Assembly: GCA_038897215.1 (NCBI GenBank)
Contig: JAWAWX010000001.1
Span: 896,001 to 960,000, forward strand
DNA from: Acidilobaceae archaeon
GTDB taxonomy: Archaea > Thermoproteota > Thermoprotei_A > Sulfolobales > Acidilobaceae
Direction of reading: 5' to 3'
DNA: 64,000 bases
Under the pieces are notes generated by a model. That model worked only from the letters and a program-made list of their open reading frames with translations, searched no databases and had not been told where the DNA came from. Each line of letters begins with the position of its first letter. Within the stretch, counting starts at the first letter, position 1. This document shows, one piece after another, positions 5,889-15,287 of the stretch. The position numbers and the translations under genes are program-made.

Positions 5889-7202
5889 TTGAGAGTACTG
5901 TTGATTCACGCTGAGAGATTCTCCTTCAGCTCAGAGCAGGAGGCTCTCGAGAAGCCTCCAGACCCCCCGGCTTCGGGGAGTTTTGAGAACTGCCTCGTCG
6001 TATTCGTTACCGTAGAGGAGGGAGACGGTGCTGACGAGGCTAGATTAGCCGCTGCCGATGCCGTAGCTCAAGCTAAGACTGTGAGAGCTAGCGCTATAGT
6101 AGTCTACCCCTACGCTCACCTCTCGAGTAGAGTAGCTAGGCCCGAGGAGGCCTACGGGGTCCTCCTCGAGCTAGAGAAGGCGATTTCGAGCATGTGGGAG
6201 GGTCTCGTGGCCAGAGCTCCCTTCGGCTGGTATAAGTCGTTTCAGCTATCGTGCAAAGGACACCCCCTAGCTGAACTCTCGCGTTCATTCGCGGGAGTCC
6301 AGGAGGTTAGGTATAGAGGGCTTCCTCTCGAGGAAGCTGTTGCCCTAGAGCTAGTCGACGAGAGAGCTCTGAGGAGACCCCCCTGGGATAAGGATGTACT
6401 CGAGGCATACTCTAGGCTGAGATTCGACTCGCTAGAGGGGAGGAGGGCTCGAGTAGAGCTGGAGGAGAGAGCCTTCCGAGCACTAGGTCTCAGGAAGCTG
6501 GCTAGAATCAGCGAGCCTCGGTGGACCCACGGGCTTCGAGGAGTAGCAGCACTAGCATCGCTCTGCTCTAAGCTAGAGCCGGGAATACTGGCCTCCTGGG
6601 GAGACGTTGGGGACTCTGTGGCGTCGACTGAGGTCGACCCTAGAGGCTTCCTCTCCGAGATAGACTCGGAGCTAGCATCGATGCTGGAAGAAGTGAAGCT
6701 GGGAGAGGAGGGGCTGAGCGTCTCGAGTCTACAAGGCTCCGTCTACGCGTATAGAGCTAGAAGCGGGGGCCTGGCTCCTCTAGTGGTAGAACTGCCTAGA
6801 CTCAAATGCCTCGGCCCTCTCTCCTCTATCGTGCTCAGCCTGATAGACTTGGGTCTCAGGAGAGCAGAGAGAGGTAGAACGCCGAGCCTGCCCTTCTGGC
6901 TAGCCCCTATCCAGGTAGCTCTCCTACCAGTCTCCGAGAAGCACTCGAGCTTCGTTGAGCGCGTTGCCGAAAAACTCAGCGAGATAGGAGTGAGATTCAC
7001 TGTCATGAAGGAGGGGGGCCTCGGCTCGAGGATACGAGAGGCTGGAAGAAGCTGGGTCCCCATAGTGGCTGTTGCTGGAGATAGAGAGGTAGAGACGGAG
7101 ACTCTCTCGGTTAGAAAGAGGTGGGAGGAGGGGAGGCAAGAGGTTCTAACTCTCAACGAGTTCCTATCGCTAATTGCTGAACTTAAGAGAAGACGATTCT
7201 GA
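5889..7202 (+). CDS. Free-standing threonyl-tRNA synthetase editing subunit (ThrRS-ed)
   Basis: N-terminal archaeal editing domain (YPYAHLS, RAPFGWYKSF, CKGHPLAELSR), C-terminal anticodon-binding domain (LPFWLAPIQV), no intact catalytic domain. Confidence 0.9.
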   Translation: MRVLLIHAERFSFSSEQEALEKPPDPPASGSFENCLVVFVTVEEGDGADEARLAAADAVAQAKTVRASAIVVYPYAHLSSRVARPEEAYGVLLELEKAISSMWEGLVARAPFGWYKSFQLSCKGHPLAELSRSFAGVQEVRYRGLPLEEAVALELVDERALRRPPWDKDVLEAYSRLRFDSLEGRRARVELEERAFRALGLRKLARISEPRWTHGLRGVAALASLCSKLEPGILASWGDVGDSVASTEVDPRGFLSEIDSELASMLEEVKLGEEGLSVSSLQGSVYAYRARSGGLAPLVVELPRLKCLGPLSSIVLSLIDLGLRRAERGRTPSLPFWLAPIQVALLPVSEKHSSFVERVAEKLSEIGVRFTVMKEGGLGSRIREAGRSWVPIVAVAGDREVETETLSVRKRWEEGRQEVLTLNEFLSLIAELKRRRF

Positions 7203-7225: not shown

Positions 7226-8440
7226 GTGACCGCGGAGAGTGTCGGAAGGAAAGCTATTGTGAGCGACGTGTTTAGAGAAAACCCGGAGCTTGCTAGCAGA
7301 CTTAGAGACTACGTGGGCAAACTCTTCAGCAAGCTTAGAGAAAAGTGGAGTCCAAGTCTTAGACTCAAGATCATGGATTTCTGTGGCACTCACGAGTGGA
7401 CCATAACTCACTACGGCTTGAGGGCTCTAATGCCCGAGGGGCTAGAACTCGTAGCCGGCCCCGGTTGCCCTGTTTGCGTGACGCCATCTAGAGACGTTGA
7501 GGCAGCCATAAGGCTCTCCTTGGAGGGAGTGACCGTCTACACCTACGGAGACGCTTACAGGCTGAGAGCTCTAAACCCAGTTGATGGAGCGTACTCTCTA
7601 GCCGATGCTAGAGCTCTAGGAGGAGACGTGAGGGTAGTCTCGAGCTTCTACGACGCTGTAGAAGACGCGAGGAGACACGGAAAGCCCTCCGTCTTCTTCG
7701 CTATAGGCTTCGAGACAGTTGCTCCCGGGTACGCGAAGACTCTGCTGAGGGGAGTAGTGCCGGCTAATCTCAAGATACTGAGCTCCGTCAGGCTAACCCC
7801 TCCCGCTATGTTCTACTCTCTCAGCATCCTTAGAGAGAAGCCTCCCGAGCCTCCGGTCATGGGGGTAATCGCTCCCGGGCACGTCTCGACGATAACGGGG
7901 GCTAAGGCTTGGGTGCCTGTAGCTGAAGCCTTCGAGATACCAGTAGTCGTGGCTGGCTTCGAGCCCATCGACGTACTCCTAGCTATCGCATCCATACTGA
8001 GACAGCTCCTCCAGGGGAGAGCAGAAGTAGAGATCGAGTACAAGAGAGCAGTAACCTTCGAGGGGGATCTGAGCGCTCAAGCAGCTATAGCCAAGGTCTT
8101 CGAGACTGTCGATGCGGCATGGAGAGGCATAGGGTTCCTCCCGAGAAGCGGGCTCGAGCTCAGAGAGAGATACTCGGAACACAACGCTAGAGTAGAGTAC
8201 GGGATAAAGCCCGAGAGCCCCGAGGAGTGGAGGAAAGACACACCGCCCGGCTGTAGGTGCGCTGAGGTAGTCTTAGGCAAAGCCAAGCCGACAGACTGCC
8301 CTCTATACATGAGAGCATGCACTCCAGAGAGCCCCTACGGTCCCTGCATGGTCTCAATGGAGGGGACCTGCGCTATCTGGGCTCGCTTCGGGGGCGGCAG
8401 AGTGGCTATAGATATAGCTAGAGAGCTGGGTCTAGAGTAG
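7226..8440 (+). CDS. hypD: Hydrogenase maturation factor HypD
   Basis: CGTHE, GPGCPVC, GFET, PGHVS, C-terminal Cys cluster GPCMVSMEGTC. Confidence 0.97.
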   Translation: MTAESVGRKAIVSDVFRENPELASRLRDYVGKLFSKLREKWSPSLRLKIMDFCGTHEWTITHYGLRALMPEGLELVAGPGCPVCVTPSRDVEAAIRLSLEGVTVYTYGDAYRLRALNPVDGAYSLADARALGGDVRVVSSFYDAVEDARRHGKPSVFFAIGFETVAPGYAKTLLRGVVPANLKILSSVRLTPPAMFYSLSILREKPPEPPVMGVIAPGHVSTITGAKAWVPVAEAFEIPVVVAGFEPIDVLLAIASILRQLLQGRAEVEIEYKRAVTFEGDLSAQAAIAKVFETVDAAWRGIGFLPRSGLELRERYSEHNARVEYGIKPESPEEWRKDTPPGCRCAEVVLGKAKPTDCPLYMRACTPESPYGPCMVSMEGTCAIWARFGGGRVAIDIARELGLE

Positions 8441-8453
8441 CGGGTGCTCTCTC

Positions 8454-8753
8454 ATGTGCTGGGGCACTCCAGCGATACTAGTGAGAGTGCTAGACGATAT
8501 AACGGCCGAGGTCGACTTCGGCGACGGAGTGCCTAGGAGAGCAGTCCTCGGCCTAGACCCCAGCAGGGTCAGCTCTGGGGACGCTGTGATCGTCCACGCT
8601 GGAGTAGTAGTATCTAAGCTCAGCTACGAGGAGATAGAGGACGTGATAAGGTACCTGGAGGAGCTAGCCTCCCTCACTGGAGACGAGCCCCCTAGAGACA
8701 TAATAGAGAAGCTTAGGAGAGTCCTGGAGGCGGCTAGGAGAGCTGGTGAATAG
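8454..8753 (+). CDS. hypC: Hydrogenase maturation chaperone HypC
   Basis: N-terminal MC(W)GTP, VIVHAG, position between hypD and hypE. Confidence 0.92.
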   Translation: MCWGTPAILVRVLDDITAEVDFGDGVPRRAVLGLDPSRVSSGDAVIVHAGVVVSKLSYEEIEDVIRYLEELASLTGDEPPRDIIEKLRRVLEAARRAGE

Positions 8754-8755
8754 CG

Positions 8756-9808
8756 TTGCCGCGCCTAGATAGGTACGTGAAGCTAGCTCACGGCTCTGGA
8801 GGCGTTGAGATGCACGAGCTAGTCGAGAGCATAGTGTTCTCTAGGATAAAGAGGAAGAAGGTGGAGGGAGGGCTGGGCGTAGACAAGCCCGACGACGGAG
8901 CCTTGATACCGTTGAGTGATGGGGGTTATCTCGTAGTCTCGACTGATAGCTATACAGTCAACCCCCCATTCTTCCCCGGAGGCAACATTGGAGTCTTGGC
9001 TGCCTCAGGCTCTATAAACGACGTGCTGATGATGGGCGGGAGACCTATTGCAGCTCTAGACTCGATCATAGTAGAGGAAGGCTTCTCCTTCGACGACCTC
9101 GAGGTAATAGTCGAGTCAATGATGGAGGTTTTCAATAGCGAAGACGTAGCGGTCATCGGGGGAGACTTTAAGGTGATGCCTCGAGGGTCTCTAGACAAGA
9201 TAGTGATCAACACGACGGTCTTAGGCATAGCTAGGAGACCTATAGTAGACGAGCCTAGAGAAGGCGATAAGATAGTAGTCAGCGGCTATCTGGGAGACCA
9301 CGGAGCCGTCATCATGCTCCTCCAGATGGGCTTAGAGAAGAGAGTTGAGGAGCTCGAGAAGGGGCTCTTGAAGAGCGATGTGAGACCCCTCACTAAGCTA
9401 ATGATACCGCTCGTGGAGAAATACGGGGAATACATACACGCTGCCAGAGACCCGACGAGAGGAGGCCTAGCCGGGGTCCTCAACGAGTGGGCTAGAGCCT
9501 CGGGCTCAGTGATAGTAGTCGAGGAGAGCAGGATCCCCGTGAGAGCTCCTGTCAGAGACTACGCGGAGATGCTGGGAATAGACCCGCTATACCTGGCTAG
9601 CGAGGGAGCGGCCGTGCTCTCAGTAGACGGGAGCGTTGCCGAGGACGTGGTGGAGTTCATGAAGAGACTTGGCTTCGAGGAGTCTCGGGTAATAGGGGAG
9701 GTTAGGAGTAGCGAGAAGTACAGAGGCTATGTTTTGATGAAGACAGTCGTGGGCGGGTACAGGCTTCTAGAGCCTCCTCGAGGAGAGCTAGTCCCGAGAA
9801 TCTGCTGA
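8756..9808 (+). CDS. hypE: Carbamoyl dehydratase HypE
   Basis: LAHGSGG, DPTRGG, C-terminal PRIC. Confidence 0.97.
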   Translation: MPRLDRYVKLAHGSGGVEMHELVESIVFSRIKRKKVEGGLGVDKPDDGALIPLSDGGYLVVSTDSYTVNPPFFPGGNIGVLAASGSINDVLMMGGRPIAALDSIIVEEGFSFDDLEVIVESMMEVFNSEDVAVIGGDFKVMPRGSLDKIVINTTVLGIARRPIVDEPREGDKIVVSGYLGDHGAVIMLLQMGLEKRVEELEKGLLKSDVRPLTKLMIPLVEKYGEYIHAARDPTRGGLAGVLNEWARASGSVIVVEESRIPVRAPVRDYAEMLGIDPLYLASEGAAVLSVDGSVAEDVVEFMKRLGFEESRVIGEVRSSEKYRGYVLMKTVVGGYRLLEPPRGELVPRIC

Positions 9809-9819
9809 GGAGAACCTAG

Positions 9820-10425
9820 ATGCCCAGGAGAGTCTTGGTTGGAGCGATAGCCGTGGAGAGAGAGGGGCTAGCTGGAGTGAGGATAAGAGAGGTCTCGAGC
9901 AGTGCTGAGCTCTGCATAGACGTCTTAGACCCCCAGGGGTGCACCTACAAGCTCTATACTCACACACACGAAAACCACTACCCCAGCAACCCCCCGGGAG
10001 ACGCCTTCTCCCCCGCTGGGCCTAGGAGAGTAGCTCCAGGAGACTCTATGAGCCTCCCCCCCTTCTTCGTCCGCGCTGTCCACGCCTACAACAGAGAAGA
10101 CTTGGAGAGAGCTCCGAGACACAGGAGGGGGGAGGGAGTGGGATACATAGTCTACCACGGAGACTACTCCATCTACCACGTAGGAGACAGCGACCTCATA
10201 CCTGAGATGGCTTCACTCAGGTCTCTGGAGATCGACGTGATGCTGGTCCCTGTAGGAGGAGGCTCTGTTATGGAGCCAGAAGAGGCTCTAGAGGCTGTGA
10301 AGACTGTCAGGCCCTCGGTAGCAGTCCCGATACACTACTGGAACCTCAGAGACGCTGAGAGATTCAAGCTACTCTCACACCCGTACTCTCAGGTAATCCT
10401 GCTGGCATCGAGGAGCTCGCCATGA
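9820..10425 (+). CDS. Metallo-beta-lactamase-fold protein (UPF0173/UlaG-like)
   Basis: THTHENH (variant of HxHxDH), YHVGDS, VPIHY. Confidence 0.75.
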   Translation: MPRRVLVGAIAVEREGLAGVRIREVSSSAELCIDVLDPQGCTYKLYTHTHENHYPSNPPGDAFSPAGPRRVAPGDSMSLPPFFVRAVHAYNREDLERAPRHRRGEGVGYIVYHGDYSIYHVGDSDLIPEMASLRSLEIDVMLVPVGGGSVMEPEEALEAVKTVRPSVAVPIHYWNLRDAERFKLLSHPYSQVILLASRSSP

Positions 10426-12239
10426 GTTTAGTCACACCCCCCAGCATGAGGTACAACGCTGTAGAGCCTAGGGAGTACATGAGGATACACGCTGAGACAG
10501 TGAGTGACCTCGAGTCATTCTGGGCTCGCCAGGCGTCACAACTCCTCCGCTGGGAGAAGTCGTGGAGTAGGGTGCTCGCGGGAGAGAGCGCTCCCCGCAT
10601 CCGCTGGTTCGAGAACGGGCTCCTCAGCCCCTACTTCAACATAGTTGGGAGGCACCTATCGACCTCTATAGAGAGCAAGCCCGCTCTGATAGTAGAGGAT
10701 GAGGATGGATCGGCTAGGATAGCGAGCTATAGAGAGCTCGACGCGATATCGGGCATCCTGGCTAGAGCTCTCCGAGACCTAGGAGTGGGGAAGGAGAGCT
10801 GGGTTCTCTTCTACGCTCCGTACTCCGTGGAGGTTCTCGCCGCATTCCTGGCTTCTCTGAGGCTAGGGGCTTCCGCTGAGTTCGTCTTCACAGGGTTCGG
10901 GTGGCGTGAGCTGAAGAAAAGGATACTCAACAGGAGACCCAGAGTAGTCGTCGCACTCGATGCTATCACGAGACGCGGGAAGAAGATAAGCCTCATAGAG
11001 GCTCTAGAGAGGTCTCTCGCAGGCACTGAGCCCAAGCCGGAGGTAGTCGTGGTAGAGTCTTCGAGAAGCTCGGTCAAGTGGAGGAGCTTCGATGAGTTCC
11101 TCAAAGGCTCCTCAAGGCTGGAGAGAGACGCTGTAGTCGAGTCCTCTCACCCACTAGTAGGCTTCCACGTCGGGTACGAGGAGGACTTCGAGCCTCTAGC
11201 TCACGGAGCCGGGGGCTACTTGACTCAAGTAGTCTCAGTCACGCGATGGCTAGGCTTGAGAGCTAGAGACACTCTCTACTGCACTGTGAGCCCTGGCTGG
11301 ATAACCGCTGTATCGCACTGCATCGTGGGAGCTCTAGCAATAGGCTCTACTATAGTAGCCTACACGGGGGCTCCCGACTATCCGAGCTGGGAGAGATGGC
11401 TGGAGATCCTGGACTACTACTCTGTGACAGTCTTCTTGACTACGAGTTCTGCTCTAAGACTCCTCTTGAGGAGAGCCGGTGACAGAGTTGGAGACTACGA
11501 GCTGGACTCTCTGAAGATAGTTGTGACCACAGGAGAGCCCATGGAGGAGAGCTTGTGGAGCCAGGCTTACGCTAAGTTAGGCTCGAGCTCCTCCCCGCTC
11601 ATAGACTCGATACCAGGCAAGTCTGGCAGAATACCCGTATTCAACGCATACATCCAGACAGAGCTAGGAAGCTTTGCTACAGGCCATCTGACTAGCTCGG
11701 CATTCGGTCCAATAGCCCCAGGCTCCGCAGGACTCCCCGTGCTCGGTCTAGCTGTAGACGTAGCCGGGGAGGACTGCTCTCCTGTGAGGAACGCTTGGGG
11801 GAGGCTGGTCTTGAGGAAGCCCTGGCCCTCTATCCCCGTAGAGTACCCGAGAGAGTTCGAGGAGAGCTGGAGTGGTGGCTGCTACGATACGAGAGACTCT
11901 GCCCTCATGACTAGCGAGGGCTACATCTACGTGAGAGGCAGGAGAGACCAGGTCATTAAAGCAAGCGGCTACAGGCTGAGCCCTGGGGCTATAGAGAAGG
12001 CTATAGAGGAGTCTGGAGCGGCCGGGAAAGCCGTGGCTTCAGGCGTCCCAGACGAGGAGAGATTCGAGGCTGTGCTCGTAGCAGTCGAGAACGGAGACCC
12101 TCAAGCAGTGAGGAAGACTGTGAGAGAACTCGTGGGGCCTATAGCCGAGCCCTCCATAGTCTTGCATTTAGAGCTCTCGGGTGACAAGAGATCGCTGAGG
12201 AGAGCTCTCCGAGAGAGGAGTGCTCGAGGATACTCGTAG
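10422..12239 (+). CDS. Acetyl-CoA synthetase-like adenylate-forming-fold protein with degenerate P-loop
   Basis: WFENG, PGWIT, TGEP, QTELG, GRRDQVIKASGYRL align with ACS; YTSGTTGKPKG replaced by FHVGYEEDFEP. Confidence 0.8.
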   Translation: MSLVTPPSMRYNAVEPREYMRIHAETVSDLESFWARQASQLLRWEKSWSRVLAGESAPRIRWFENGLLSPYFNIVGRHLSTSIESKPALIVEDEDGSARIASYRELDAISGILARALRDLGVGKESWVLFYAPYSVEVLAAFLASLRLGASAEFVFTGFGWRELKKRILNRRPRVVVALDAITRRGKKISLIEALERSLAGTEPKPEVVVVESSRSSVKWRSFDEFLKGSSRLERDAVVESSHPLVGFHVGYEEDFEPLAHGAGGYLTQVVSVTRWLGLRARDTLYCTVSPGWITAVSHCIVGALAIGSTIVAYTGAPDYPSWERWLEILDYYSVTVFLTTSSALRLLLRRAGDRVGDYELDSLKIVVTTGEPMEESLWSQAYAKLGSSSSPLIDSIPGKSGRIPVFNAYIQTELGSFATGHLTSSAFGPIAPGSAGLPVLGLAVDVAGEDCSPVRNAWGRLVLRKPWPSIPVEYPREFEESWSGGCYDTRDSALMTSEGYIYVRGRRDQVIKASGYRLSPGAIEKAIEESGAAGKAVASGVPDEERFEAVLVAVENGDPQAVRKTVRELVGPIAEPSIVLHLELSGDKRSLRRALRERSARGYS

Positions 12240-12760
12240 TAGGCGTGGGGAACAGACTCTATGGAGACGACGGAGTGGGTAGTTGCCTAGTCGAAGCCAT
12301 ATCTAGGTGCCAGAGCCCGATAGAGACCAGGGTCTACGAGACTCTCGGCCTCTGGGAGCTCGATATATTCGAGTCTAGGAGACTCGTGGTCTTCGTGGAC
12401 GCTATCGGGCAACACGCTGAAGGCCTCAGAGTATTCAAGGTGGAGCCTGAACGCCTCTCTACCGAAGACCTTCTCGAACTCTCCAGGTCTCTAGACCCTC
12501 ACGACGTGGCTCCCTCAACGCTAGCAGTCCTAGCTCTAGCTAGTGGTACTCTGAGCGGAGAGTGCTACATAGTAGGGATACCCGCTGAGAGCCTAGAGCC
12601 GGGTCTCGGGCTCTCGGAGAGAGCTCTAAGAGGAGCTCTAGAGGCTCTAGAGGCTATTGAGCGCTTGCTAGGTAAGCATGAGTGCTACATCAGACTCGAT
12701 AGAGTGTGCGTTGAGAGAGAGATAGCGAAGAGCTGCGGGCTTCGAAGCATGGTAGTATAA
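12230..12760 (+). CDS. Hydrogenase maturation endopeptidase (HycI/HybD family)
   Basis: RILVVGVGNRLYGDDGVG, VFVDA, DPH; start uncertain because the motif extends upstream of GTG 12245. Confidence 0.85.
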   Translation: MLVVGVGNRLYGDDGVGSCLVEAISRCQSPIETRVYETLGLWELDIFESRRLVVFVDAIGQHAEGLRVFKVEPERLSTEDLLELSRSLDPHDVAPSTLAVLALASGTLSGECYIVGIPAESLEPGLGLSERALRGALEALEAIERLLGKHECYIRLDRVCVEREIAKSCGLRSMVV

Positions 12761-12788: not shown

Positions 12789-13544
12789 TTGTGGTGCTCT
12801 GGATTGAGTCTGATTAGAGCTGTGTGTGGTCAAGACGAGCACTGCTTCATAGAGCTCTGGGGCTTCATGGAGTCTCTAGCCGAGCTGGATAGGAAGCTCG
12901 GAGAGGTCAGAGTAGAGGGCTCTCTAGGAGCCGCTGCCCCCGTGATCATCGGGGTCCCCGAGGAGACCATCTCAGAGATGAGCGATAAGCTCTACAGAGC
13001 TCTCAGAGAGCTCGGCTACGATATAGAGAAGGAGAGCGTCGACAGGGGGGCTAGAGGAGCGTACGAGCCCGAAGACCAGGCGTCTTCATTCGCCTCATTC
13101 GCATTCAAGAGGCTACTCTACAAGACTGCTAGAGGAGCAGAGCACCAAGCGCTATCACAGCCCTGGAGTGAGACCTACTGCCCTGTCTGCGGGCTTCTGC
13201 CCGTAGCTGTGGTCGATGAGCGTGATGAAAGCGGCTTTCCTCAAGCTAGGTACAAGTGCCTCTGTGGAAACTCGTGGAGACAGAGTGAGTTCATGTGCCC
13301 TAGCTGTAAAGCCAGAGGAGGAGAGAACTTTGAGGTACACCATGTCGGCAGGCTCCCCATGTATCTATGCAAGAACTGCGGTCACATGATGCTAGTAGCT
13401 AGCTCGGAGCACATTAGTGGAGCAGAAGATGAGGAGATACTCCCGATAATAGCGGCGATAGCTGCAAACACCATACTCCAAGAGCTCTCGCAAGAATCAG
13501 GAGAAGAGGGGGGAGATGAGAGAGAAGACGTGAGGATAGAGTGA
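12789..13544 (+). CDS. FdhE-like accessory protein
   Basis: W...CPVCG, CxC...W, CPSC, CKNC cysteine pattern of FdhE. Confidence 0.7.
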   Translation: MWCSGLSLIRAVCGQDEHCFIELWGFMESLAELDRKLGEVRVEGSLGAAAPVIIGVPEETISEMSDKLYRALRELGYDIEKESVDRGARGAYEPEDQASSFASFAFKRLLYKTARGAEHQALSQPWSETYCPVCGLLPVAVVDERDESGFPQARYKCLCGNSWRQSEFMCPSCKARGGENFEVHHVGRLPMYLCKNCGHMMLVASSEHISGAEDEEILPIIAAIAANTILQELSQESGEEGGDEREDVRIE

Positions 13545-13720: not shown

Positions 13721-14761
13721 CTAGTACGCCATGGCTTCTACCGCGTAAGCTTCTCTAGCCAGCCTCGTGGGAGGCTTAGAGCTCACTTCTCTCGCTAGCT
13801 TCCAGGCAATGTACATCGTTAGAATTCTGGGCAGTAGTCTCGATATAATGTGGACTATTAGCGGTATCTTGATCCTAGCTCCGGCTGCTCGAGGGTGCCC
13901 ACCACCGCCCAGTCTTCTCGAGAGCTCCTGCACGTCGACTGTTCTACTGCGTAGAGAGATGCCCCCATTTGGTCTAGCTATGCAGGCTATGTCCGCAGAG
14001 TATCTAGCCATCATTATAGCTGCTAGAATACCGTTAGCTGGAGGCCCCTCGTCTTTGAGAGCTACAGCTATGCGTACTCCTCTAGCCTCCATCACGGAGA
14101 CTGTTGAGAGAGCCTTGCTCACATTCTCGAGCTCCATAGAGACGTACTCCTCTACTCGAGAAGCGAGCTCCTCATCCCAGAGCACTCCGCTAGCTAGCTT
14201 CTCGACTACTCTAGCTTTCCACTTGTAGCTAGCTTCTCTTGCTCCTACAGCTCTGAACAGCTTGGGCGAGTAGGGGTTATCCCATCTCCAGAGGTCCGCT
14301 GAGCAGACAGCGTCTACGAGCCTAGCGGTATACTCGTCCGGCTCTCCCCCCCAGAGTATTGGAGCATACCTGGCTACTACTCCCGTAGCACACGTCGTTT
14401 TATCGATAAAGATGCTGACTCCACGTCTTCTGAGCTCCTCAGCCTCCCCGCTGTCCCACACGTGGTGGTCGTACCACTCTACTCGAGCCCCCTTGCTCGA
14501 TATGAGGGATACTGCTCTCAGGAGCTCTCTCCAGCTCTCCGGGTTTACTCCTAGGTCGCTTATCGCTACGCAATCTCCTCGCTCCACGTGCTCTGCTAGG
14601 CTAGAGAGAGCTTCGTGGAGGTCGTATGGCTCAGCGAAGACTAGCGTAGCGTCATAGCCTAGCCTTCTGCCAGCTATCCTCAAGAGCACTGCTGCTGCGC
14701 CAACGCCGTCTAGGTCTGTGTGAGTCACTATGTATAGGTGATTGCAACTACTCGAGTCCAC
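13721..14761 (-). CDS. DHH/DHHA1 phosphoesterase
   Basis: HTDLDG, SDLG, DHH, GGGGHPRAAG; start placed at GTG 14761. Confidence 0.9.
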   Translation of the reverse strand: MDSSSCNHLYIVTHTDLDGVGAAAVLLRIAGRRLGYDATLVFAEPYDLHEALSSLAEHVERGDCVAISDLGVNPESWRELLRAVSLISSKGARVEWYDHHVWDSGEAEELRRRGVSIFIDKTTCATGVVARYAPILWGGEPDEYTARLVDAVCSADLWRWDNPYSPKLFRAVGAREASYKWKARVVEKLASGVLWDEELASRVEEYVSMELENVSKALSTVSVMEARGVRIAVALKDEGPPANGILAAIMMARYSADIACIARPNGGISLRSRTVDVQELSRRLGGGGHPRAAGARIKIPLIVHIISRLLPRILTMYIAWKLAREVSSKPPTRLAREAYAVEAMAY

Positions 14762-15287
14762 TGCCGCCACCCAGCTCCGAGAACTGCTTCCTGAGGATAG
14801 CCCAAGTGTCTGAGAGTAGCTGGGGGAGCACCTTGGTTCTGCCAACTACGAGCATGAAGTTAGAGTCTCCGATCCACCTAGGCACTACGTGGATATGGAC
14901 GTGGCCTGGGACGCCTGCTCCCGCTGCCTCCCCTATGTTGGCTCCCACGTTGAAGCCGTGAGGCTCGAATGCTCTCCTCAGAGCCCTGAGGCTCAGCCCT
15001 AGTAGCTCGAAGACCTCTAGAGCCTCTTCTCTCGTGAGCTCCTCGAATGAAGGCACGTGACGGTAGGGGGCTATCATTAAGTGCCCGGTGTTGTACGGGT
15101 ACTTGTTGAGGATAACGTAGGCGAGCCTACCTCTATAGACTATCAGAGAGTCCTCGTCTCTCAACTGTGGAGCAGTGCAGAAGAGGCATTCTCCAGCTCC
15201 GCCTCTACCAGCTGCCTTAGCTGCATCCTGAACGTAGGCTAGCCTCCAGGGAGCCCAGAGTATGTCGAACATTGGCTTATCGCTCAC
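14748..15287 (-). CDS. HIT-family nucleotide hydrolase (Ap4A phosphorylase-like)
   Basis: LWAPWR, CLFC, NKYPYNTGH, HVHIHVVPRW. Confidence 0.92.
   Translation of the reverse strand: MSDKPMFDILWAPWRLAYVQDAAKAAGRGGAGECLFCTAPQLRDEDSLIVYRGRLAYVILNKYPYNTGHLMIAPYRHVPSFEELTREEALEVFELLGLSLRALRRAFEPHGFNVGANIGEAAGAGVPGHVHIHVVPRWIGDSNFMLVVGRTKVLPQLLSDTWAILRKQFSELGGGSGLE

Follow-up and report, generated by a model that had tools for sequence, protein, structure and literature searches.

A divergent acetyl-CoA synthetase-fold protein encoded with a metallo-beta-lactamase-fold protein among the hyp genes of Thermoproteota is a candidate hydrogenase maturation factor

How the CO ligand of [NiFe]-hydrogenases arises under anaerobic conditions is, according to a 2025 review, the main unresolved question, and no mutant specifically defective in CO synthesis is known; the review also discusses formyl-CoA as a candidate precursor of CO, the source of which in anaerobes is unknown (PMC12134894). 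HypX, the aerobic CO-ligand synthase, serves aerobes (PMC12134894), whereas the genes considered here belong to lineages of anaerobic thermophiles. We analysed a stretch of 64,000 nucleotides from the genome of a hot-spring archaeon of the Acidilobaceae (contig JAWAWX010000001.1, positions 896,001 to 960,000; hereafter the window, in whose coordinates positions without a prefix are given). A hyp operon in this window, all of whose genes lie on the + strand, includes an intact open reading frame (ORF) for 605 residues at 10422..12239, the product of which has the fold of an acetyl-CoA synthetase (ACS) with degenerate motifs and which we refer to as ACSL, for ACS-like protein. Public sources name this protein 'acetyl-CoA synthetase' or 'AMP-binding protein'. 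Our analysis presents ACSL as an ANL-fold protein repurposed as a candidate hydrogenase maturation factor, which is maintained by selection, linked to hyp genes across many genomes and predicted to form a complex with the small metallo-beta-lactamase (MBL)-fold protein encoded directly upstream of it.

The ACS fold and its domain order (ACAS_N, AMP-binding and C-terminal domain) are present in ACSL, as judged from Pfam matches (ACAS_N, E = 6.8e-14; AMP-binding, E = 3.8e-35; AMP-binding_C, weak) and from an AlphaFold2 model with a mean predicted local distance difference test (pLDDT) score of 92.9 and a predicted template-modelling score (pTM) of 0.93. Solved ACS structures align with the full length of the protein at 26-30% identity, the best being 8rpk (E = 4.9e-65, ~28-30% identity). 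The A3 phosphate loop, (T/S)SG(S/T)TGKPKG in canonical enzymes, aligns with FHVGYEEDFEP at residues 248-258 (11163..11195), and the A10 motif PKTRSGK aligns with LELSGDK at residues 583-589 (12168..12188). The retained motifs are QTELG at residues 412-416, Asp 492 within Y-D-T-R-D, and GRRDQVIKASGYRL at residues 506-519. A sequence-only reading of this DNA had described a full-length ACS-like fold with this combination of degenerate and retained motifs, and each of them is confirmed at the residues given. Curated models for acetate-CoA ligase are matched far below their cut-offs (TIGR02188, 316.6 versus 724.95 bits; NF001208, 320 versus 657 bits), and the public label of acetyl-CoA synthetase is almost certainly wrong. 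When compared with solved structures, the model gives template-modelling (TM) scores of 0.90-0.91 to 1pg4, 2p2f and 5jrh, which are ACS enzymes solved with CoA or acetyl-AMP, and just 0.77-0.78, with a root-mean-square deviation of ~9.7 Å, to 1ry2 and 5u29, which we take to be structures in the adenylation conformation. The model thus appears to sit in the CoA-bound conformation.

The clade to which ACSL belongs is limited to Thermoproteota and comprises approximately 50 sequences. A search of 5.8 billion proteins retrieved ~52 sequences of the ACSL type (40-67% identity, 352-909 bits), annotated from Acidilobaceae, Thermofilaceae, Desulfurococcaceae, Sulfolobales, Thermoproteus, Pyrobaculum and Infirmifilum, and below this set scores fall sharply to canonical ACS proteins at no more than 261 bits. 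A profile search against 1.84 billion cluster representatives returned just ~eight clusters of the ACSL type at 50% identity, and the other matches that were aligned all contain the phosphate loop (P-loop), save for two unrelated oddities, P0126 and P0137; the corresponding cluster in the ESM Atlas has 67 members, archaeal throughout. We considered whether a fused form might provide a functional clue, and this was discarded as P0126 (1273 aa), the only representative of such length, consists of two ACS units in tandem, falls outside the ACSL clade and has a damaged phosphate loop. P0137, a 662-aa ACS-like representative that also falls outside the clade, has a damaged loop of its own (FLNGSKGESIK, with PRLEDGK). 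In a tree that includes canonical ACS sequences, the ACSL clade is monophyletic (51/51 sequences, support 0.93) and its stem is long (1.14 substitutions per site). ACSL is under clear purifying selection, judging from pairwise ratios of non-synonymous to synonymous substitution (dN/dS) of 0.11-0.15 where dS is unsaturated (0.05-1.0), and the neutral evolution that the sequence-only reading had named as a refuting outcome is not borne out.

To place the residue changes in context, we compared 68 canonical ACS sequences with 48 members of the clade. Conservation in ACS reaches 90% or more at 276 alignment columns; the clade retains the ACS residue at 95 of these, has a different conserved residue at 38 and is variable at the other 143. 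The P-loop, which is present in 68/68 canonical sequences, is missing together with the A10 lysine in all 48 ACSL orthologues. The earlier suggestion of a repurposed ACS relative is supported. The loop that stands in place of the P-loop has its own consensus, L-H-x-G-Y-x-[DE]-[DG]-[FYL]-x-P, with His249 in 44/48 members, Tyr252 in 46/48 and an acidic residue at position 254 in 40/48, and its net charge is negative in 40/48 and positive in 0/48. At the A10 lysine column, the clade has E, a gap, A or S, and several orthologues stop short of this motif. For the remaining sites we use the numbering of Salmonella Acs, mapped via the set of 68 canonical sequences and anchored on motif positions and on residue names in PDB titles; the functional labels that we attach to these residues are presumed ones, based on the structural literature on Acs by Gulick and Reger. 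The equivalents of T311, E388, P389, E417, D500, R515, D517 (the hinge residue), G524 and R526 are invariant in all 48 members, that of Q415 is kept in 45, and that of T416 is Ser or Thr in 46. Hence the AMP and ribose contacts, the hinge Asp and the A8 pantetheine loop of functional ACS are preserved in the clade. The acetate-specific pocket (Val386, Trp414) is not preserved: V386 is Thr and W414 is Ile or Val in 48/48, G387 is Ala in 44/48 and V310 is replaced by Ile. This pattern is as expected for a protein that binds an AMP moiety and a pantetheine-type thiol but neither uses ATP nor releases pyrophosphate, and, as far as sequence conservation can tell, the invariance of residues at the AMP, ribose and pantetheine sites favours a protein that has kept ligand binding over an inert scaffold.

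The sequence-only reading had proposed that co-localisation with hyp genes be examined in homologs, and ACSL proves to be tied to these genes across many genomes. We surveyed 10 kb on either side of 25 ACSL orthologues for counterparts of the window proteins, and in 24 of these loci the MBL partner or a hydrogenase gene lies no more than 10 kb from ACSL; the exception, L055, has none of the listed genes. The MBL gene is present in 19 of the 25 loci, mostly directly upstream of ACSL, hypE in 18, hypC in 13-14 and hypD in 11, and lower counts were obtained for hypA with an Mrp-type ATPase (8), nikR (7), hypF (6) and hydrogenase structural genes (5-6). The commonest gene order is hypD-hypC-hypE-MBL-ACSL. 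Loci of the Thermoproteaceae type are arranged differently, as nikR-ACSL-hypA-ATPase, with the MBL gene beside hypD 10-15 kb away. In these loci, which are hydrogenase superclusters, the gene directly upstream of ACSL encodes a NikR-type regulator (L035:8518-8934, with equivalents in L036, L038, L039, L041, L056 and L058).

Linkage is accompanied by co-occurrence. Among 401 genomes sampled evenly across the phylum, host included, an ACSL orthologue (at least 419 bits) is found in 27, the host among them, and the next-best matches, at no more than 290 bits, are canonical ACS; HypD is far commoner, being present in 269/401. The HypD type closest to that of the host (at least 545 bits, 60-69% identity, 26 genomes; the next HypD scores 514 bits) includes 24 of the 26 other ACSL carriers. 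Hence, among the 400 other genomes, ACSL and this HypD type occur together in 24 and each occurs alone in 2, counts in which related genomes are non-independent samples. All four unpaired genomes are fragmentary cases. The two with HypD only are assemblies of 150 contigs, one of which has an MBL orthologue beside hypD; of the two with ACSL only, one has the gene on a contig of 6.2 kb that breaks off at the expected position of hypD and the other has it beside a hypD fragment. The pairing spans at least seven families, and in three genera (g8, g21 and g22) the carriers have this HypD type and the non-carriers have another (50-56% identity). ACSL therefore displays the conserved linkage and co-occurrence with hypCDE expected of a Hyp accessory protein. 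A tie to a single hydrogenase class was considered and rejected, as the HynL type of the host is found in just 18/26 carriers and also in ~14 non-carriers, and those carriers that lack it encode [NiFe] large subunits of other types. That the ACSL-MBL module does not track one hydrogenase class points to the Hyp chemistry that these enzymes share.

The small MBL-fold protein (201 aa; 9820..10425) was not identified as a partner of ACSL in the sequence-only reading. It matches Pfam Lactamase_B_3 (E = 8e-18), and the MBL fold was confirmed by an AlphaFold2 model (pLDDT 94) and Foldseek comparison with small MBL hydrolases (TM 0.73-0.80), the nearest solved folds being 3kl7, 3x2y/3x2z from T. maritima (with nickel), Igni18 from Ignicoccus (6hrg) and the cAMP-bound 7e3w. 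Its HxHxDH motif is incomplete, reading HTHENH with the Asp lost. Among 18 MBL orthologues this position is R, G, N, A or S in 17, with Arg in 9, and D in just one. The remaining metal ligands, H48, H50, H53, H101, D123 and H172, are kept in 15-16 of the 18. Cys32, Asp34 and Cys41 are nearly invariant among these orthologues.

Prediction of the ACSL-MBL complex gave an ipSAE of 0.85 (0.83-0.86 over three runs) versus 0.01 for the best of three controls; in calibration the ipSAE mark was reached by 58/80 solved complexes and 2/110 mismatched pairs, counts that are only a rough guide to the present pair because alignments of our own making were supplied. At least 90% of contacts are common to the runs, and the partner has a pLDDT of at least 89. 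The predicted contacts involve ACSL residues 85-105, 282-284 and 328-336/360-363 and the N-terminal strand and C-terminal helix of the MBL protein. The structural neighbours listed for ACSL and for the MBL protein are titled as single-protein entries, and we know of no solved complex between an ACS and an MBL protein. As a prediction, the modelling supports binding of the MBL-fold protein by ACSL.

On balance, we favour, though without strong conviction, the reading that ACSL is a subunit derived from ACS, which has given up ATP activation and retained the adenylate/thiol half-site and which forms part of a Hyp accessory module of two proteins. ACSL as the large subunit and the small MBL-fold protein would together form an accessory module of one Hyp lineage in anaerobic Thermoproteota. 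The large subunit would have descended from an AMP-forming acetyl-CoA synthetase by loss of both elements for ATP activation of the carboxylate, the phosphate loop and the A10 lysine, and would no longer make acetyl-CoA from acetate and ATP. We infer that it may bind an adenylate and/or a thioester and carry out, or gate, only the thiol-transfer half-reaction, with the MBL-fold partner docked on its N-terminal domain. The module would serve the assembly on HypCDE of the Fe(CN)2CO portion of the cofactor. A more novel reading, which we regard as improbable, is that ACSL and the MBL protein are a lineage-specific enzyme system that provides HypCD with the precursor of a diatomic ligand under anoxic and hot conditions, in which case CO derived from a formyl- or other acyl-thioester or adenylate is the most attractive candidate.

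Several observations weigh against a two-protein accessory module of this kind. Well-studied anaerobes mature their hydrogenases with HypA-F alone, and most anaerobes manage without the ACSL and MBL genes, so ACSL cannot be a general requirement; within our sample, it is found in only ~10% of HypD-bearing genomes. In three Thermoproteaceae loci, ACSL is located 10-80 kb from hypD. Three of the 18 MBL partners lack metal-binding histidines, which weakens the case for a hydrolytic step performed by the partner. Conservation at the predicted interface is only marginally different from that elsewhere (0.68 versus 0.62), a gap too small to count in favour of the complex. The thioester-like pose of the ACSL model could partly mirror how common that state is among solved ACS structures. 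Finally, the proposal leaves the role of the acidic loop unexplained, and a metal-mediated nucleotide site is conceivable.

Among other explanations, the one that survives best is that ACSL is a non-catalytic pseudoenzyme, the ACS fold serving as a scaffold, or as a sensor of AMP, CoA or acetyl-CoA, through which the MBL protein and the Hyp complex are recruited or controlled, with no chemistry of its own. Both hallmarks of adenylation are lost in every member of the clade, the C-terminal tail is variable or truncated, some MBL partners also lack metal ligands, and the predicted MBL contact is on the N-terminal domain of ACSL, distant in sequence from the catalytic motifs, all of which such a role would accommodate. 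It would not account for the invariance, in 48/48 members, of the hinge and second-half-reaction residues (the equivalents of D517, G524 and R526), nor for an acyl pocket that has been remodelled to new invariant residues and has not drifted, which exceeds the needs of a sensor of AMP only, and we consider a pseudoenzyme unlikely.

If, on the other hand, the acidic loop were to hold the phosphates of ATP via Mg2+ or another metal, ACSL could be a complete ligase with a rewired nucleotide site, which would convert some small acid that is not acetate, formate for instance, into a CoA thioester for the maturation machinery. The conserved pattern of the loop, H-x-G-Y-x-[DE]-[DG], would then be explained, as would the retention of the Mg-binding Glu, of the contacts to adenine and ribose and of the residues on the CoA side alongside a changed acyl pocket, and the discussion of formyl-CoA as a possible CO precursor (PMC12134894) gives this idea some appeal. 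Nevertheless, a conserved lysine is lacking both at A10 and in its vicinity, several members stop before this motif, and a negatively charged loop would repel the triphosphate unless a metal bridged the two. Adenylation by ANL enzymes needs both the A10 lysine and the glycine/threonine-rich loop, which further counts against a complete ligase, and we judge this explanation improbable.

Less probable still is a role in metal handling, in which ACSL and the MBL protein would bind nickel or iron, at the His cluster of the MBL protein and the His-containing acidic loop of ACSL, and hand it on to HypA, HypB or HypCD. The position of ACSL between nikR and hypA with the Mrp-type ATPase in Thermoproteaceae-type loci is suggestive in this respect, as are the nickel present in crystals of a close structural neighbour of the MBL partner (3x2z) and the conserved His within the acidic loop, but in most other lineages the pair is encoded with hypCDE, the iron-ligand branch of the pathway, and metal transfer provides no reason for invariant nucleotide and pantetheine residues. 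That ACSL is an unrelated metabolic enzyme merely travelling with hyp genes, as its public annotation as acetyl-CoA synthetase or AMP-binding protein and its absence from most hyp-bearing genomes might suggest, is already disfavoured and in our estimation highly improbable, given that one HypD type is present in 24/26 carriers across at least seven families with three within-genus contrasts, that the gene is embedded among hyp genes in differing orders, and that its product scores far under the curated ACS cut-off (316.6 versus 724.95).

The operon that contains the module has the order ThrRS editing subunit-hypD-hypC-hypE-MBL-ACSL-endopeptidase-Cys-rich protein, and from hypD onwards the sequence-only reading had given it correctly. 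Its first gene, at 5889-7202, 24 nt upstream of hypD and on the same strand, encodes a free-standing, archaeal-type editing-domain subunit of threonyl-tRNA synthetase (ThrRS) with an anticodon-binding part. The core Hyp machinery looks standard, since HypD (7226..8440; Pfam HypD, E = 2.3e-122) has the canonical cysteine motifs CGTHE and GPGCPVC, HypC (8454..8753; Pfam HupF_HypC, E = 3.6e-13) has the Met-Cys N-terminus MCWGTPA, and HypE (8756..9808; Pfam AIRS and AIRS_C) ends in VPRIC, with the canonical C-terminal PRIC. The start codon of ACSL shares an ATGA with the stop codon of the MBL gene (10422-10425), a 4-nt overlap. The following gene, at 12245..12760, encodes a hydrogenase maturation endopeptidase (TIGR00072, 61.7 bits, above the cut-off of 47.45), and its earliest possible start is the GTG at 12245, 5 nt past the ACSL stop, so ACSL overlaps the MBL gene only and not both neighbours as had been suggested. 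The last gene (12789..13544), previously labelled fdhE, encodes a 251-aa Cys-rich zinc-ribbon protein that is just weakly FdhE-like (TIGR01562, E = 0.0027; Pfam FdhE_central, E = 0.031). Neither of these two genes was retained as part of the module, as the endopeptidase is near ACSL in just 3/25 other loci and the Cys-rich ORF has 0 counterparts in them. Genes on the - strand at 13721-15287 converge on the end of the operon and encode a DHH/DHHA1 phosphoesterase and a HIT-family nucleotide hydrolase. Both proteins act on nucleotide derivatives; neither is kept beside ACSL in other genomes, and both were likewise set aside as module components.

The host genome is a single contig of 1.16 Mb, estimated to be 89.7% complete, and encodes a canonical ACS elsewhere. 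A second set of genes ~220 kb away comprises, in order, an Mrp/ParA-type ATPase, hypA, the hydrogenase small subunit, a cytochrome-b-like protein, the large subunit, a 193-aa ORF and HypF. The sequence-only reading had found neither hypF nor hypX in the window and proposed that they be sought elsewhere. The former is present, adjoining the hydrogenase structural genes (C1:684583-686937), and is complete with all five domains (727 bits); the HypX domains Formyl_trans_N (PF00551) and ECH_1 (PF00378) had no match in a search of the whole genome. This complete HypF, together with the HypF genes that adjoin ACSL in 6 other loci, led us to reject ACSL as a replacement for HypF and to regard it as an addition. 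The large subunit of the host hydrogenase shares 78% identity with its counterpart in a genome of a different family (G256, family f30), and the host HypD is 66-69% identical to the HypDs of that family. HypD, ACSL and this large subunit are absent from all 12 genomes sampled in the host's own family. The modules for the hydrogenase (C1:679395-686937, outside the window) and for Hyp (7226-12239) look laterally acquired, or uniquely retained, in the host lineage.

Full-text literature searches found no description of the ACSL-MBL gene pair. It is a conserved, selected pair in the hyp operons of strict anaerobes that combines a CoA/adenylate-handling fold with a metallo-hydrolase fold, and if the proposal of CO-ligand supply were true, it would for the first time make accessible to genetics the question of where the CO ligand of [NiFe]-hydrogenases comes from in anaerobes. 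Even as a chaperone, regulator or metal device, it would be a new component of a pathway long thought to consist of HypA-F, with HypX as the addition. With regard to the ANL superfamily, ACSL would represent a clean natural case of a member that keeps only the second half-site. In practical terms, the acetyl-CoA synthetase mislabel distorts metabolic reconstructions of the archaea that carry this gene.

Comparison with known systems places the module beside several of them without equating it with any. HypX resembles ACSL by analogy only, as a lineage-restricted addition to HypA-F that is encoded with hyp genes and has a CoA-handling enzyme fold, but it is a formyltransferase-crotonase fusion with no homology to the ACS fold of ACSL. 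The likeness to HypF, a carbamoyltransferase that forms carbamoyl-adenylate, is conceptual, in that HypF takes an acyl-type group held as an adenylate and places it on a protein thiol, namely the Cys at the C-terminus of HypE, whereas its fold (acylphosphatase, zinc fingers, YrdC and Kae1) is unrelated. The MBL partner has the same fold as the UPF0173/Igni18-type MBL hydrolases (3KL7, 3X2Y, 6HRG and 7E3W) and most metal ligands in common with them, and differs in the systematic replacement of the HxHxDH Asp, its location in hyp clusters and its predicted binding to ACSL. The closest relatives of ACSL itself are the AMP-forming Acs enzymes (EC 6.2.1.1, ANL superfamily), such as those of Salmonella enterica (1PG4/2P2F) and Chloroflexota (8RPK/8RPL), with which it shares the three-part architecture of ACAS_N, a large N-terminal and a small C-terminal domain (TM 0.91), motifs A5 (Q-T/S-E-x-G), A7 (Y-x-x-G-D) and A8 (G-R-x-D-x-V-x-K-x-S-G-Y-R), the E-P of the adenine site and the invariant Arg of the R-x-G stretch. 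Unlike Acs, ACSL has a conserved acidic His/Tyr loop at A3, no A10 Lys, Ile or Val in place of the acetate-gating Trp, Thr in place of V386 and a three-residue deletion in the M-L-R stretch; it scores less than half the curated cut-offs, and its genomic context is that of the hyp genes rather than of carbon metabolism.

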